64,000 nucleotides of DNA from Polyangiales bacterium (GTDB lineage Bacteria > Myxococcota_A > Polyangia > Polyangiales > Ga0077539): assembly GCA_044229975.1 (NCBI GenBank), contig JBGARZ010000003.1:256001-320000 (forward strand), in the 5' to 3' direction. Each line of letters begins with the position of its first letter. Position 1 is the stretch's first letter. The position numbers and the translations under genes were made by a program. Shown one piece after another: positions 45,201-52,520 of the stretch. The notes below the pieces were generated by a model. It searched no databases and had not been told where the DNA came from. It saw only the letters and a list, made by a program, of their open reading frames with translations.

Positions 45201-46574
45201 TCAGCACTCGATGATGTTCACCGCGAGACCGCCGCGCGCGGTCTCCTTGTACTTGGTGCTCATGTCGGCGCCCGTCTGGCGCATCGTCGCGATGACCTTG
45301 TCGAGCGACACCTTGTGCTTGCCGTCGCCCGCCATCGCGAGCCGCGCGGCGTTGATCGCCTTCACGCTGCCCATCGCGTTGCGCTCGATGCATGGCACCT
45401 GAACCAGGCCCCCGATGGGGTCGCAGGTGAGCCCGAGGTTGTGCTCCATCCCGATCTCCGCGGCGTTTTCCACCTGCTCGGGGGTGCCGCCCATCACCTC
45501 CGCGAGCGCGCCCGCCGCCATGGAGCAGGCGACCCCGACCTCCCCCTGGCAGCCGACCTCGGCCCCCGAGATGGACGCGTTCTTCTTGTAGAGAATCCCG
45601 ATGGCCCCCGCGGTGAGCAGAAACCTCACCACGCCGTCGTCGTCCGCGTTGGGAATGAACCGCCGATAGTAGTGCAGCACCGCCGGGATGATCCCCGCCG
45701 CCCCGTTGGTGGGCGCCGTCACCACGCGACCCCCGCCCGCGTTCTCCTCGTTGACCGCGAGCGCGAAGAGGTTGACCCAGTCCATCGCGATGAGCGGATC
45801 ACTGGCGCCACCCGCAGCGCAACGCAGCCGCCGGTACAGCGCAGGCGCGCGTCGCCGCACCTTCAACCCGCCAGGGAGAATCCCCTCGTGGTCGCACCCT
45901 CGCTGCACGCAGCCCGCCATCACCGCCCAGATCTCCAACAGCCTGCTGCGAACCTCCTCGGCAGGTCGCCACGCGCACTCGTTCTGGAACATCACCGTGC
46001 TCACGGACAATCCCCGGGCGTGGCAGATCTCCAGCAGCGCCTGCCCCGTCTCGAAGGGGTGCGGCATCGCGGCGCGATCGGCCGCGAGGCCCTCGGCGAC
46101 ACCGTCCTGGTTCACCACGAAGCCGCCGCCCACCGAGTAGAACACCCGCGACGCGAGGGTCGCTCCATCCGCCCCAACCGCGGTGAAGCGCATCCCGTTG
46201 GAGTGCAGCGGCAGCGTCTCGCGCCGATGAAACACCAGGTCTCGCTCGGGCTTGAACGCCACCTCATGGCGCCCCAGCAGGCTCAGCCGCCCCGCAGCGC
46301 GCACGGCCTCGACCCTCGCCCCCACGGCCTCCGGATCGACCGCCTCGGGTCTCTCTCCGAGCAGCCCCACGACGACGGCCACGTCGCTGCCGTGCCCCTT
46401 CCCCGTGTGCCCCAGCGAGCCGAAGAGCTCGACCTTCAGACCCGCCACGCGCTCGATCAGCGCGGCGGCGTGGAGCCCTTCGGCGAAGCGCAGCGCGGCT
46501 CGCATCGGTCCGACCGTGTGTGAGCTCGACGGACCGATCCCGATGCTGAACATGTCGAACACGCTGATGGTCAC
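45201..46574 (-). CDS. sdaA: L-serine ammonia-lyase (Fe-S)
   Basis: [52 protein letters not shown]. Confidence 0.96.
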
Positions 46575-46625
46575 CGGCCGAGCATAGCCCCCTGCGACGG
46601 CGCTCGTCGGTATATGGTCGGGCCC

Positions 46626-47078
46626 ATGGCTGGAGATCTGGTTCGATTCGGGGTCGCGATGGATGGTGACCTCCTGCAACGCTTCGACGAGCACATCGGG
46701 GCCAAGGGCTACGCCAACCGCTCCGAGGCGCTGCGCGACCTCGTGCGCGCCGACCTGGTCAACGCCCACCTCAAGCGCGACGGGCTCGCGGTCGCCACGC
46801 TGACCCTGGTCTATGACCATCACGTCCGCGAGCTCTCCGAGAAGCTCACCGACATGCAGCACGACCTCGGCGAGCACGTCGTCTCGACCCTGCACGTCCA
46901 CCTCGATCACGACCACTGCCTGGAGGTCATCGTGCTGCGCGGCCCGGCGGCCCTCATCCAGTCGGCGGCCAACCGCCTGCTCGCCACCAAGGGGGTCGAG
47001 CACGGGCAGCTCGTCGCGACGGCCCTCCCCGAGCACACGCACCAGCACGCCGACGACCAGCACCACGGCACGCGCTGA
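46626..47078 (+). CDS. nikR: nickel-responsive regulator
   Basis: [33 protein letters not shown]. Confidence 0.95.
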
Positions 47079-47208: not shown

Positions 47209-50058
47209 ATGAGCTCCTTGCGATCGCCCCACCTCGCGTCCCTGACCGCTTCCGCGCTGTCGGGTCTGCTGTTCGTCGGCTGCGGCGATCCGATGCCTGC
47301 GGCGCCTCCCTCCGATGCGGGCCTCGGAGACGTCCCCGTCGATCGGCCGGTGGAGGTCGACTTCGCCGATCACACCGTCCCTCGCCTCGCTTCGGCGGCG
47401 GAGTTCCAGGCGATCGCGGCCGAGGAGTTTGGCCTGTCGACGGTGAAGTTCATCATCACGGCCTTCAACGACCCCACGGCTCGCAACGGCCGCTTCTACG
47501 ACAGCACGTTCTTCACCCTGCACGACCAGTGGTACTGGTTTCGCCTGCTCAACGGGGCGCGCATCCCCGGCGACTTCGTCGAGCCCGTGCAGGGCCTTCG
47601 CTTCGACACCATCGCGGACATCAACCGCTGGGCCGCGACGCAGCCGGTGCTCCCGCTCGACCTCGCGTTCTACGGCGACCGCCTCTACTCCCCGCGCTTC
47701 TACGACTACGCCTTCGGGGCCACCCGCCGCTTCGGCCTCGCGACCGTCGTCCGCGTCCCGCCCCGCGCGTCCAACCCCGAGCGCTGGGCCTTCGAGCTGG
47801 AGTACAGCGACTCGGTCTCGCACGCCGAGCTGACCATCTTCTTCGACGCGCTGCGTGCCCGCCTCCCCGCCGCCATCGCGAGCGAGCTGCGCTTCCTCAT
47901 CCGCTCGCCCGAGCAGGAGTCCCTGGGTCAGCGCATGGAGGCCGACCACCTCGCCAACTGGGACCGCCTGCTGCGCTACGGCGACATCGTCGTTCCGGGC
48001 GCGCGCGAGGTGTACAGCGAGGGCATCGCCGCGGGCCGACTCCGAACCATCCGCCGCGGAGAGTCCTTCGACACCGTCAACAACAACGACGTGGTGGTGA
48101 TGGAGGCGATCCCTGACGTGCTCCCCGACCTCGCCGCGCTCGTCACGGCGGTGCCGCAGACGCCGCTCGCGCACATCAACCTGCTGGCCCGCAACCGCGC
48201 CATCCCCAACGTCCACGTCGCGGGCATCCTCGAAGACCCGACCATCAACTCACTGGAGCACGGCTACGCGCCGGTGCTGGTCTTCGCCGAGGCGCCCGAC
48301 CGCGTGGTGCTGTCACCCATCACCGAGGCGCAGTACGGGCGTTACCGCGCCCTCGTCGACCTCCCGGCGCGCGTGGTCACGACGCCGCCGGTCGAGACGA
48401 TGCCGTACCTCATCGACCTCACCGCGCGCGACCCCGCCGAGATCGCGACGCTCGCCTCGACCATCGGCGGCAAGTCGTCGGGGATGATCGCCCTCCTGCA
48501 CGCGCCCGACCTCGACCTGCCCGACGCGCCGCACAGCATCACGGTGCGCGCCTACGTCGAGCACTTCGCGCCGATGCGCGCACGCGTCACCGCCGCCCTC
48601 GCCGACGAGGCCCTCGGCAGCGACGCACGCGCCCGACGACTGGTGCTGGAGGGCATGGCCGCCTTCCGTGCGCGCACCGCGGCGGCGGCCGACCTCGCCT
48701 ACGCCAACGCCTTCGTCGCGGCCCGTCCCGCAGGCAACGCGGCGGGCGACTTCGCGCGCGGCAATGGCGTCCGCGGCCTGGTGGAGTCGACGCCCATCGC
48801 CCCTGCAACCCTCGCGGAGATCGACCGCGTGCTCCGCGCGGCCTACGCGACGCTGGCTCCGACGCAGGGCATCCGCTTCCGCTCGTCGTCCAACGTGGAG
48901 GACATCGAGGGCTTCAACGGCGCGGGCCTGTACGAGTCGTACACGGGCTTCCTCGACCCGGTCTTGCAGCCGCGCGCGTCCGACCGCGACAAGACCATCC
49001 AGCGCGCCATCCAGCGCGTGTGGGGATCATACTGGGGCGTCGAGGCCTTCGAAGAGCGCCGCGCCGGCCGCATCGATCACCTCTCAGCCGCGATGGCGGT
49101 CATGGTGCACCCGCGCTTCGACGACGAGCTCGAGCGCGCGACCGGCGTGTGCACCTTCACGCAGCTCCCGCCCAACACCGCGGACGCCGAGGAGCTGGAG
49201 ATCAACACCCAGCCCGGCGCCGAGAGCGTGGCCAACCCCAACCCGGCCCTGCTGCCCGAAGTCGTGCGCGTCTCTCGCACCCGCGGCTCCGACACGCTGC
49301 GCATCACACGCGTTCGCCGCGCGACGCTCTCGCCCGACCGCGACCTCTTCACCGACGACGTCCTTCGCGCGCTCTTCGCAGACACCGCCGCCGTCACGCA
49401 CCGCTGGCTCGAACGCGAGAACACCCCACGCCCCGCCGCCCGGCGCTCGCGCACGCTCACGCTCGACTTCGAGTTTCACGACATGCTGGGCGGCTGGCCC
49501 GCCGTCCGCACGGGACCCGTTCGCCCTGCGCGACTCGTGCTCAAGCAGGCGCGCACCCTCGAACCCGCGCCTCGCGTGACGTCGACCGAGTCGCAGGCGT
49601 GGCCGGTACCGCGCGACATCCTGTCCCGCGCTCGCCGCGTCACGACCCAGACCTGCACCGGCGATGTCACCGCGGGCGTGACCCTCACGGCGACCCTGCT
49701 GCGCGTGCAGACCGACGCCTCGCTCACCCCCGACGTCGGCTTCGCCGCCAACCCCTTCGACGCCTCCCTCACCCTCACCGCCCGCGGCGTCGTCGCGGCC
49801 CTCGGCTGGTCTGCCGACGCCACCTATGCGGCCGACCACACGGCGTTCACCACCACCCGCGACGGAACCTCCCGCGTCTTCGACGTCGCCACCGCATCGC
49901 CCGCGCGGACGGGCCTCGACCGCGCCCGTCTCGACGCCGACGGCACGCTCACCGTCACCCGCGGCGCGCGCACCGTCACAGCCCGCCTGACGTGCACCGA
50001 CGAGCTCCTCTTCGCGACGCCGCGCGACTTCCTGCTCGGCCTCGTGCCGCCGCGGTAG
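47209..50058 (+). CDS. lipoprotein with phospho-His swivel and PEP-synthase/PPDK ATP-grasp domains
   Basis: LFVGC lipobox; TPLAHINLLARNRAIP; GGKS; RSSSNVED..FNGAGLYES; VWGS; DFEF; KQAR. Confidence 0.8.
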   Translation: MSSLRSPHLASLTASALSGLLFVGCGDPMPAAPPSDAGLGDVPVDRPVEVDFADHTVPRLASAAEFQAIAAEEFGLSTVKFIITAFNDPTARNGRFYDSTFFTLHDQWYWFRLLNGARIPGDFVEPVQGLRFDTIADINRWAATQPVLPLDLAFYGDRLYSPRFYDYAFGATRRFGLATVVRVPPRASNPERWAFELEYSDSVSHAELTIFFDALRARLPAAIASELRFLIRSPEQESLGQRMEADHLANWDRLLRYGDIVVPGAREVYSEGIAAGRLRTIRRGESFDTVNNNDVVVMEAIPDVLPDLAALVTAVPQTPLAHINLLARNRAIPNVHVAGILEDPTINSLEHGYAPVLVFAEAPDRVVLSPITEAQYGRYRALVDLPARVVTTPPVETMPYLIDLTARDPAEIATLASTIGGKSSGMIALLHAPDLDLPDAPHSITVRAYVEHFAPMRARVTAALADEALGSDARARRLVLEGMAAFRARTAAAADLAYANAFVAARPAGNAAGDFARGNGVRGLVESTPIAPATLAEIDRVLRAAYATLAPTQGIRFRSSSNVEDIEGFNGAGLYESYTGFLDPVLQPRASDRDKTIQRAIQRVWGSYWGVEAFEERRAGRIDHLSAAMAVMVHPRFDDELERATGVCTFTQLPPNTADAEELEINTQPGAESVANPNPALLPEVVRVSRTRGSDTLRITRVRRATLSPDRDLFTDDVLRALFADTAAVTHRWLERENTPRPAARRSRTLTLDFEFHDMLGGWPAVRTGPVRPARLVLKQARTLEPAPRVTSTESQAWPVPRDILSRARRVTTQTCTGDVTAGVTLTATLLRVQTDASLTPDVGFAANPFDASLTLTARGVVAALGWSADATYAADHTAFTTTRDGTSRVFDVATASPARTGLDRARLDADGTLTVTRGARTVTARLTCTDELLFATPRDFLLGLVPPR

Positions 50059-50067
50059 AGCCCCCGC

Positions 50068-51171
50068 TCAGCCGCCCGAGAGCGCCGCGTCCATGGCCCG
50101 CGCGCAACCCCGCGGCGTGGCCCCCGGCGCGCGTCCCAACACCACGAACCCATCGCCGTCCTCATCGACCCGCCCGAGGTCGCTGGTCTGGATGGCGATG
50201 GCGCTCCCGAGGTTCATCAGGTCGACGACGCGGACGAGCCCGACCCGCCCGCGTGGCACTTCACGCAGCGTCTCCGGGTCGACCATCGTGACCCGCATCC
50301 AGGGCGGAACCCGATAGCTCGCCCTGCCCTCGCGACGCGCTTCGTATCCCTGCGAGCTCAGCTCCGTCATGCCGTACTCACCGAGGATGCCCGCCGGCGG
50401 GAGACCGAAGGTCGCCGCGATCATCCCGCGCAGCACCTCGGGGTCGACCTCACGCGACCGCCCCTTGAAGCCCCCGGTGGGCATCGCGACGCTCCCGTTC
50501 GGGAGCCGCCACTGCTTCGCGCCGACGGCATCGAGCAGATGCACGAAGCCGAAGCTCGTCCCCAGCAACGCGACCGGCACGCCATCACCCATCGAGCGAT
50601 CGAAGGCCGCGGCCACCGCCGCGACATCGAGCGCCGCGTCGCGAACCGTCCATGCGTCGTCGAGACGCGCCGTGCCCCGCCTCGCATCCCAGGTCTCGGC
50701 GAAGCGCGCCAACATGAACGACAGCGACGACGCGGGCGCCCCCGACTCCGACTCCGCGAGCAGCACGAAGCGGTACTCGGCTTCGGGCAACAGCCACCGA
50801 CGAGCCGACGCGATCGCGGCCGCCTCGTAGAGATCAGTGCTCGCGAAGGGATGCCGTCCGCGGACCTCCTGGGTGGTCCCGCTCGTCTCGAACACCCGCA
50901 CCGTCTCACGCTCCGGGAAACAGGCGACCCGAACGGTCTTGAATACGTCGGTCGGTAAAGCCGGAACCTCCGCCAACGCCTCGGGCGCCCTCTCGCCAAG
51001 CGTCCGGGCGGCGATGCGCGCGACGACCGGGTTGTGCGCTCGCTGCCACGCGAAGACCGCGAGCCCGAGCGCCTCGACGGCGTCGTCGGTAATCGCCCCC
51101 ATCGGCGTCGTGGCGAGCGAGCGCAGGCGCTCGTGGAGCGCGGTCCCTTCGCGGTCGAGCCACCCGGTCAC
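50068..51171 (-). CDS. LuxE-like acyl-protein synthetase
   Basis: PALPTDVFK, FETSGTT, TGGFKGR, EYGMTELSSQ, IQTSDLG, LGRA..PRGC. Confidence 0.88.
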   Translation of the reverse strand: MTGWLDREGTALHERLRSLATTPMGAITDDAVEALGLAVFAWQRAHNPVVARIAARTLGERAPEALAEVPALPTDVFKTVRVACFPERETVRVFETSGTTQEVRGRHPFASTDLYEAAAIASARRWLLPEAEYRFVLLAESESGAPASSLSFMLARFAETWDARRGTARLDDAWTVRDAALDVAAVAAAFDRSMGDGVPVALLGTSFGFVHLLDAVGAKQWRLPNGSVAMPTGGFKGRSREVDPEVLRGMIAATFGLPPAGILGEYGMTELSSQGYEARREGRASYRVPPWMRVTMVDPETLREVPRGRVGLVRVVDLMNLGSAIAIQTSDLGRVDEDGDGFVVLGRAPGATPRGCARAMDAALSGG

Positions 51172-52520
51172 GCGGGCACCTCGATTGCGAGCACGTCGGC
51201 CAGGGTCGTCGCAAAACCCTCGATCTGAGCGTCTGTCATGCACGCAGGCGGCGTGAGCGTCAGAACATCCCCGTCGACGCCGCCCGTGAGCATCACGTAG
51301 CCGCGCTCCAACATGCGGCGGCAGACTGCGAGCGCGCGACGGAGGCCACCCTCCACGGTGATTCCGATCAGCATGCCCGCAAAGGTAAGCCGACGAACGC
51401 CCCCGCCCTGTCGCGCGAGCGCCACCCGCAGCGAGCCCTCCAACGCGGCGGCGCATCTCGCGATCATCGCGCTCGTCTCGGGTCGCTCGAGCACATCCAG
51501 CGACGCCAACGCTGCCGCGCAGGACAGCGGGTTGCCGAGGAAGGTCGACGTGTGAATCGCCTCTCCCACCGACGCGCCCCAGGCAAGCGCAGACTCCTCG
51601 CGAACGATCGCCGCACTCACCGGAACGCCCCCACCCAGCGCCTTCCCGACCACGACGACGTCGGGCTCGCAGCCCATCGCGAGCGACTGGAGCCACGGGC
51701 CGGTGCGCCCGAGCCCGGTGTAGATCTCATCAACGATGAGCAGCGCGCCGCGCTCCTTCGCCACCGCTCCGAGCGCCGAGAGCGCGCCCGCGGCGACCGG
51801 CTCGACGCCACCGCGCCCGAGGATGGGCTCGATCAACACGGCGCCGACGACTCCATCGGCCAGCGCGAGACGGGCGGCCTCCACGGAGCGCTCCAGGTCC
51901 GCGTTCGAGGGATATGGAGCGAAGCGCACGTTGGGATTCAGCTGCCCGGCGAAAGGCTCACGAAAGGCCGACTTGTAGCCGCACTCGGCGAGCGCTCCGT
52001 AGCTGAGCCCGTGGTAACCGCCCTCAAACGCGAGAACACCCGGTCGTCCGGTCGCGAGCCTCGCCGTCTTGAGCGCAGCCTCGACCGAGTCCGCCCCCGA
52101 GATCCCGAGAATCACCCGCGAAGGCCACGGCACCATCGCCGCAAGGCGCGCCTCGACCGCGATCTTCGCCGAAGACGGGTACACGTCTCCGAGGGCGTGG
52201 AGCAGCTTCCCGGCCTGCCGCTGCACCGCCTCGACGACCTCGGGGTGCCCATGACCGAGCAGCGCGACGCCAAAGCCCCCGGTCAGGTCGACGTACCGAT
52301 TGCCATCGGCGTCGATGACGTTGGCGCCCCTTGCCCGCACCCACACGATCGGATCGTGCGAGGCGCCGGTCAGCTCCTCGCGCCGACGGCGACGAGCGGT
52401 GAGCCCAGGGCACTCGACCGCGGCAAGTTTGTCGACGAGCGAGCGCGTGACCTCACCACCTGGTTCGCCGGAGCGAAGCAGCGGAGGGAGGTCACCGTTG
52501 AAAGGGAGGGAGTCGGACAT
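51168..52520 (-). CDS. class III PLP-dependent aminotransferase
   Basis: DADGNRYVD, SGADSVEAALK, YHG, EPILG.GG, DEIYTGLGRTG, GKALGGG, HTSTFLGNP. Confidence 0.93.
   Translation of the reverse strand: MSDSLPFNGDLPPLLRSGEPGGEVTRSLVDKLAAVECPGLTARRRRREELTGASHDPIVWVRARGANVIDADGNRYVDLTGGFGVALLGHGHPEVVEAVQRQAGKLLHALGDVYPSSAKIAVEARLAAMVPWPSRVILGISGADSVEAALKTARLATGRPGVLAFEGGYHGLSYGALAECGYKSAFREPFAGQLNPNVRFAPYPSNADLERSVEAARLALADGVVGAVLIEPILGRGGVEPVAAGALSALGAVAKERGALLIVDEIYTGLGRTGPWLQSLAMGCEPDVVVVGKALGGGVPVSAAIVREESALAWGASVGEAIHTSTFLGNPLSCAAALASLDVLERPETSAMIARCAAALEGSLRVALARQGGGVRRLTFAGMLIGITVEGGLRRALAVCRRMLERGYVMLTGGVDGDVLTLTPPACMTDAQIEGFATTLADVLAIEVPA

Follow-up and report, generated by a model that had tools for sequence, protein, structure and literature searches.

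A predicted exported swivel-histidine dikinase-like lipoprotein of a Polyangiales bacterium and the association of its family with polyphosphate-polymerase-domain genes

How could a dikinase-like enzyme obtain phosphate outside the cytoplasm, and what would it phosphorylate there? This question is raised by a gene at 47209..50058 on the + strand of a 64,000-nucleotide stretch of DNA from a Polyangiales bacterium (assembly GCA_044229975.1, contig JBGARZ010000003.1, positions 256,001 to 320,000), the whole of which is called the window below. Its open reading frame (ORF) was translated over 949 codons with zero internal stops, and the GC content at codon positions 1/2/3 was 0.71/0.53/0.93, a coding-type periodicity. 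From the sequence, an alignment and an AlphaFold2 (AF2) model, the product (949 aa) is predicted to be an exported lipoprotein related to the swivel-His dikinases. ATP is generally considered to be absent from the envelope.

The 949-aa protein belongs to a large uncharacterised exported family, and the genomes that carry it are enriched in VTC, a gene with a polyphosphate polymerase domain. VTC is paired with DUF4956 in what is presumed to be a module for making and exporting polyphosphate. We tentatively propose that the protein is an extracytoplasmic swivel-His phosphotransferase, whose N-terminal domain would bind the envelope acceptor to be phosphorylated, with phosphoanhydride energy from VTC-DUF4956 polyphosphate. 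We regard this as quite possible, though somewhat short of probable.

Export signal and domain architecture

The predicted Sec/SPII signal peptide occupies 47209..47283 (+) and ends in the lipobox LFVG-C25, already pointed out in an initial annotation made from the sequence alone. We scored lipoboxes with our own motif-plus-hydropathy test, not with SignalP. By this test 113/121 proteins of the "long" subfamily, which is defined by the C-terminal beta domain described below, were positive, as compared with 0/1285 internal windows used as controls; 108/120 homologs of a short-subfamily paralog were positive too. A stricter first version had scored 102/121 long-subfamily homologs as positive. 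Misses in this subfamily were mostly truncated gene calls. When 114 of the 121 homologs were aligned (7 fragments or odd-length proteins were left out), conservation of C25 was at least 90%. The open-frame stretch upstream of the ATG overlaps the NikR gene and has a GC content of 0.44/0.85/0.82, a non-coding look in that frame. The initial annotation had allowed for a lipobox that is not conserved or a true start after Cys25; the lipobox counts and the conserved C25 point to neither.

Actinobacterial members have a lipobox as well where the start codon is called, and lipoprotein members of the family occur in metagenome-assembled genomes (MAGs) of Acidimicrobiia. The lipobox is followed by a Pro/Asp-rich disordered tether, residues 26-49 (47284..47355, +; pLDDT below 50 for residues 22-45). 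The mature protein contains three further Cys residues, of which C816 and C929 are invariant in the 114-homolog alignment, and the model predicts that these two lie on outer strands of the beta tail, as expected of a disulfide. On this sequence evidence the protein is predicted to be membrane-anchored and extracytoplasmic.

The AF2 model of the 949-aa protein has a pLDDT of 91. Residues 264-384 (47998..48360, +) form a swivel phosphohistidine domain with His322 (codon 48172-48174). H322 is invariant in 114/114 aligned homologs, and its aligned counterpart in solved PEP synthases is the GRTSH histidine. In the model this domain matched the EI His domain (Z 10.3, rmsd 3.8, 112 aligned), pyruvate kinase (Z 9.7) and the PPDK His domain (Z 8.1). 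Residues 397-785 (48397..49563, +) form an ATP-grasp of the RPH/PEP-synthase type (PF01326, E 3e-11). From residue 397 the model superimposes on the RPH ATP-grasp (5hv1) with Z 27.7 and rmsd 2.6 Å over 293 aligned residues. The ATP-grasp of HpeHI (9goj) gave Z 20.0, and Foldseek concurs, with RPH, HpeI and PEPS among its matches. According to the alignment to RPH-Lm and PpsA, residues K22, R117, T136, E297, Q309 and R311 of RPH-Lm correspond to K422, R558, S577, E755, Q780 and R782, all of which are invariant in the 114-homolog alignment. K22, R117 and T136 matter for RPH activity, as stated in passages of PMC4844700. Judged from these residues, the nucleotide-phosphate site of the ATP-grasp is intact. 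The hinge Gln (Gln183 of RPH) is replaced by His634 in 112/113 long members. K779 is nearly invariant among long members; a contact with polyphosphate was considered for this residue, which was left unexplained.

The C-terminal beta domain, residues 809-936 (49633..50016, +), gave only weak fold matches, over residues 809-935 (BtaiB, Z 8.7; PliC, Z 7.5). PEP-utilizers_C (PF02896) had no match in the protein at E<=1 and no barrel appears in the AF2 model. PPDK_N was the only Pfam family matched at E<=1, and a single-protein sequence search of the PDB found nothing significant. The swivel motif with His322, the full ATP-grasp motif set, the beta-rich tail and the missing pyruvate/PEP TIM barrel, all noted in the initial annotation, were thus borne out, and its His322 proved to be conserved throughout.

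The N-terminal alpha/beta domain spans residues 50-262 (47356..47994, +) and is presumed, from its conservation and a model with pLDDT 95, to hold a second (acceptor) active site. The domain of about 250 aa that the initial annotation could not place is therefore shorter, about 213 aa with 7 helices and 9 strands, and begins only after the disordered tether; the lack of a Pfam or clear solved-fold match stood. Conservation was counted in a non-redundant alignment of 180 sequences filtered on the His and ATP-grasp motifs, so that only the N-domain figures are independent. K80, H105, Y160, R173 and D201 were kept in 96-108/113 long-tailed and 61/67 short-tailed proteins, the remaining positions being mostly gaps. 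These five residues are presumed, from the sequences, to be a candidate second, acceptor active site.

With a profile built from 41 short-subfamily N-domains, 93 long N-domains reached a median score of 20 bits and a Streptomyces relative scored 50 bits, whereas reversed controls did not exceed 4. The long-subfamily N-domain profile was not significant when compared directly with one Streptomyces sequence, and the link between the two is transitive, through the short-subfamily profiles. Pfam matched no family across 95 N-domains. Foldseek gave no match at E<=0.001, and among 48,161 chains none reached Z 5 (best 4.2), from which neither different folds nor a new fold follows. RPH was not among the structures listed by these fold searches, an absence that is compatible with a likeness. 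Two ESM Atlas matches, with scores of 0.81 and 0.77 (the second a PF22973 cluster), are leads only.

The protein is a member of the swivel-His dikinase (PEP-utiliser) superfamily and is neither PEP synthase, RPH nor GWD, because it has the domain order of GWD without the carbohydrate-binding modules (CBMs) and the helical central domain of that enzyme. Passages of PMC13553574 on StGWD1 give the same order of acceptor domain, His domain and ATP-grasp. However, CBM45 is absent from the 949-aa protein, which has no room for it before residue 50, and the GWD central domain is all-helical (about 440 aa, 20 helices), in contrast to the alpha/beta fold here. In addition, our protein is a bacterial lipoprotein with an extra beta tail. 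The GWD-type His domain PF22973 had no match in it, and 7/30 relatives scored 12-16 bits with a cutoff of 27. The GWD likeness seen in the initial annotation therefore holds for the domain order; the acceptor fold type differs and the similarity of the His domains is at most weak.

RPH-Lm (5hv1) has the closest solved ATP-grasp. RPH is a cytoplasmic enzyme with the order ATP-grasp, substrate domain, His domain, according to passages of PMC4844700, and its His motif is GGxxxH rather than QTPLAH. The RPH model PRK06241 scored the protein 17 with a cutoff of 883. HpeHI (PMC12167813) is similar in the ATP-grasp. PEP synthase and PPDK share the ATP-grasp and His domains with the protein, but they have a TIM barrel and the ATP-grasp first, whereas the protein lacks the barrel, has the reverse order and is predicted to be exported; its score with TIGR01418 (PEP synthase) was 30 bits with a cutoff of 740 bits. 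TalE, an N-P-bond-forming kinase described in passages of PMC6482885, is PEP-synthase-like, of similar size (79 kDa with tag) and accompanied by an ATP-grasp ligase and an MFS transporter. Unlike the exported protein, it is a cytoplasmic biosynthetic enzyme. The source annotations that we saw were "PEP/pyruvate-binding domain-containing protein" or "hypothetical protein" and once "rifampicin phosphotransferase", not the PEP synthase label anticipated by the initial annotation.

Family members and the VTC-DUF4956 module

Among 201 genomes of the phylum, VTC was found in 28/29 carriers of the long subfamily as compared with 68/172 non-carriers, and in 60/70 carriers of the short subfamily as compared with 36/131 others. 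All 12 taxonomic families with long-subfamily carriers have VTC. When 50 of 80 family loci were sampled, VTC was present in 38/50 carrier genomes, a total that includes 13/18 actinobacterial-type carrier MAGs. The class background was 13/151; the dikinase family occurs in 2/151 genomes of this background, both VTC-positive. The long subfamily, stand-alone and beta-tailed, still tracks VTC in two phyla. CotH tracks VTC likewise (84/104 vs 12/97 genomes). Some of the tblastn "CotH" matches turned out to be lamin-tail (LTD) domains.

The homologs came from a word search that gave 235, the best 120 among the matches listed being used; the names of the nearest ones point to Myxococcota as the probable phylum of the host. 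A profile search yielded 1357 clusters (50% identity) when the cutoff was E<=1e-30 and 3385 when it was E<=1e-3, and the weaker clusters may include ordinary PEP-synthase-type proteins. Several paralogs per genome were observed, and their accessory domains vary, LTD and the beta tail being examples. The present genome holds two paralogs of the dikinase gene, both with lipobox-like signals. A literature search, largely without subscription papers and bioRxiv supplements, found no paper on the exported dikinase-like family.

Three Streptomyces plasmid records carry relatives of the same domain order. The two annotated ones have no signal peptide, are flanked by an ATP-grasp ligase and an MFS exporter, and have the N-domain residues in common with the exported family. 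Their layout recalls that of TalD/TalE/TalB in the passages of PMC6482885; the comparison is by layout, not by sequence. An ATP-grasp tree was made with FastTree from 297 columns and 40/46 sequences (P0229, L199, L049, L043, L252 and L249 were left out, as their ATP-grasp domain could not be cut out cleanly). It places the cytoplasmic Streptomyces pair outside the exported forms (0.95) and groups the long subfamily with three proteins encoded next to VTC (1.00), a position for which these three had been chosen.

At least ten short-subfamily loci, spread over 8 genomes, are part of VTC-DUF4956 operons or adjoin them, and HlyD, TolC and CotH are often present too. These ten were picked for VTC proximity from the best 150 of 240 matches listed, and ten other top-scoring short-subfamily loci had no VTC match. 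Long-subfamily dikinases were also seen beside the module. In L153 VTC, DUF4956, an adaptor, TolC, an LTD lipoprotein and the dikinase follow each other on a single strand; in L075 the dikinase is divergent from a VTC-DUF4956 operon; and in L199 it occurs with VTC-DUF4956 plus CotH. Weak "DUF4956" matches next to five distant members of low GC (E about 4e-12), which had no Pfam confirmation, were not counted.

The VTC-DUF4956 pair beside a secreted kinase-like CotH has also been described in Gram-positive pel loci, and the cotH-VTC-DUF4956 trio is in print without an assigned function, according to passages of 10.1101/768473 and PMC12345266. These passages name no dikinase, whereas here, in diderms, the pair joins HlyD/TolC or DUF2490 and the dikinase family. 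In the yeast VTC complex polyphosphate synthesis is coupled to membrane transit, in a eukaryotic vacuole (PMC9911596); our literature search found such coupling reported for no bacterial VTC-DUF4956.

Several further features were observed at loci with the pair. HlyD-type adaptors of about 700 aa adjoin VTC-DUF4956 in L114, L115, L119, L120 and L153, some with a phytase-like or DUF6929-type C-terminal domain. In Acidimicrobiia (L173:480-2918, L174:752-3682) the pair comes after a Na/Ca exchanger or a P-type cation ATPase, a context hinting at a link between VTC-DUF4956 and calcium handling. On contig C32 of the present genome (L001:3648-12462), an operon contains VTC, DUF4956, a lipoprotein, a DUF1554-like lipoprotein, a short dikinase paralog, DUF2252, DUF2490, an unknown gene and an LTD protein; dikinase and DUF2252 occupy the usual position of CotH, for which this genome gave no match. 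Also encoded there, at L001:9958-10968 (-), is an unannotated lipoprotein of about 340 aa. Its homologs adjoin short-subfamily dikinases in 17/30 loci with 1.5-kb flanks and in 9/10 wider loci, and it is a candidate partner or substrate of these dikinases.

A possible polyphosphate-driven phosphotransferase and its alternatives

In the proposed scheme, polyphosphate would be made by VTC and passed outward by DUF4956 together with HlyD/TolC or a DUF2490 barrel. Either the polymer itself or ATP that polyphosphate regenerates locally would charge His322 at the ATP-grasp site. The His domain would then swing to the K80/H105/Y160/R173/D201 site and phosphorylate a small molecule, peptide or glycan. 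By analogy with the established dikinase chemistry of RPH, HpeHI and GWD, this domain is expected to ferry phosphate between ATP-grasp and N-domain. The VTC module is named as the energy supplier because this is the simplest account of the gene associations, and beyond the anatomy we infer every step. The family members, like the CotH kinases, may be end-user kinases that can be added anywhere in a genome once the module is present, which would explain the stand-alone position of this copy.

A number of results weigh against this proposal. The 949-aa gene itself stands alone, outside any VTC operon; no VTC was found in the window, and the single VTC of the genome lies on contig C32, adjoining a paralog. 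VTC and DUF4956 were found in 3/161 partly redundant long-subfamily loci (1.58 Mb of flank), where 0.26-0.39 would be expected by chance (P(>=3) 0.002-0.008). The adjacency in L199 is doubtful because a 99.4%-identical record has no module at that spot; P(>=2) is 0.03-0.06. Conserved neighbours of the long-subfamily genes were sought, and only generic kinases and lineage-specific synteny were found. VTC had no match in 12/50 carrier MAGs, among them three of the closest relatives (G220-G222, 66-69% identity, MAGs of 8.4-9.8 Mb and of unstated completeness), and in 10/70 short-subfamily carriers. A test within families f1-f30, with two informative families for the long subfamily, gave p 0.12 for the long subfamily, which is not significant, 0.03 for the short one and 0.06 for any member. 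The neighbouring LuxE-like gene, taken as a control, gave an equally strong but negative association with VTC (39/123 vs 57/78) from lineage alone, and the raw VTC ratios therefore overstate the link. Plain ATP is an equally good fit, given the intact nucleotide site. Finally, our literature search found an activity reported neither for the 949-aa protein nor for bacterial VTC.

The enzyme could instead form ATP, as bacterial PPDK does. Polyphosphate, once exported, would then charge His322 at the N-domain, in place of pyrophosphate, and AMP would be converted to envelope ATP for exported kinases such as CotH or DUF2252. This is unlikely, yet it deserves serious consideration. The intact nucleotide site is consistent with it, CotH is present in 26/29 long-subfamily carriers as compared with 78/172 others, family members occur in operons beside CotH, and passages of 10.1101/469122 call the ATP source of CotH unanswered. 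On the other hand, CotH was sought and not found in this genome and in two others (G119 and G011), 68/96 VTC-positive genomes are without the long subfamily and 32/96 without any scored member, a housekeeping role sits oddly with several paralogs per genome, and the cytoplasmic relatives have the same N-domain residues without a need for ATP making. An end-user kinase is favoured over an ATP generator by the paralog expansions, the N-domain residues common with cytoplasmic biosynthetic relatives and the lack of a CotH match here. That the Streptomyces relatives have an ATP-grasp ligase on one side and an MFS exporter on the other, as would suit a kinase of small molecules, was also counted for the end-user role. 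We also consider it unlikely that the protein is an ATP-dependent ecto-kinase unrelated to polyphosphate, with ATP from prey, lysed cells or cytoplasmic leak and a VTC link that reflects shared lineage or lifestyle. Such a kinase would agree with the canonical ATP site, the stand-alone gene, the non-significant within-family test of the long subfamily, the carriers in which VTC was not found and the large lineage effects, but it leaves unexplained why, across several lineages and subfamilies, members form part of VTC operons and why the association holds in Acidimicrobiia, where VTC is rare. Prey-derived ATP, put forward in the initial annotation, found no support in any test; lipoprotein members occur in Acidimicrobiia MAGs too, and comparative genomics points instead to VTC-DUF4956 as the probable energy partner. 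The polysaccharide, lipid or antibiotic acceptors suggested there are still candidates.

With water as the acceptor, the protein would be a scavenging hydrolase that, by way of phospho-His, degrades extracellular ATP or polyphosphate to AMP and phosphate and so serves the uptake of phosphate. Operons of the family include phosphate-selective porin, phytase-like and metallophosphatase domains, and GWD can transfer phosphate to water (PMC13553574). However, hydrolysis does not need a five-residue second site in a dedicated domain, and simpler phosphatases exist, which makes this explanation improbable. That the lipobox is incidental and the enzyme cytoplasmic from a later start is highly improbable. 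Relatives without a signal peptide do exist; against this stand the lipobox counts in both subfamilies and their controls, the invariant Cys pair in the tail, and the other signal-peptide-like N-termini of distant low-GC relatives.

The proposed polyphosphate-driven phosphotransferase leads to a broader claim, which we consider possible but rather doubtful. Many bacteria may run polyphosphate-powered extracytoplasmic phosphorylation, in which VTC-DUF4956 (with HlyD/TolC) exports the polymer. The present family would then be the first polyphosphate-charged type of dikinase, either phosphorylating envelope targets via a new acceptor fold or making ATP in a place generally considered to have none. 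If true, such a system would account for the phosphate source of exported CotH-type kinases, and a polyphosphate-driven kinase or ATP generator would be a useful biocatalyst. The characterised swivel-His dikinases compared here (PEPS, PPDK, RPH, HpeHI, TalE and GWD) act inside cells or plastids, whereas this family is a large exported branch with an acceptor domain of its own. To this the locus adds a stand-alone, beta-tailed subfamily that tracks VTC, a cytoplasmic sister group and a candidate second active site. It also offers a single soluble enzyme for testing whether phosphoanhydride energy is delivered to the envelope as polyphosphate, which bears on the secreted CotH kinases.

Gene neighbourhood and other loci

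The dikinase gene is flanked by a nikR-like gene on one side and a convergent LuxE-like gene on the other. At 45201-47078 of the window an L-serine dehydratase gene is divergent from the gene for the NikR-type regulator, which lies directly upstream of the dikinase gene. A class III aminotransferase and then the LuxE-like acyl-protein synthetase are encoded at 50068-52520 (-); homologs of the latter occur in 123/201 genomes of the phylum. None of the local nikR, sdaA, LuxE-like and aminotransferase genes recurred in any cluster of at least three loci.

A third copy of the family in this genome, at L002:7717-9675 (+) on contig C33, encodes 653 aa with a lipobox and without the beta tail, and is not near VTC. 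The long-subfamily members P0120, P0160 and P0189 have an N-terminal lamin-tail domain, as in many CotH proteins. Distant members at L252:7701-9536 and similar low-GC loci (33-38%) have signal-peptide-like N-termini without a lipobox. On the Streptomyces plasmids (L185:7568-12248, L186:7562-12389), the ATP-grasp ligase, the cytoplasmic member and the MFS exporter are located behind a PAS regulator, and these clusters are possibly orphan pathways for a phosphorylated peptide. A second DUF2252-like gene was found by tblastn near an LTD-like gene on contig C20 of the present genome, at about 352668-355755.

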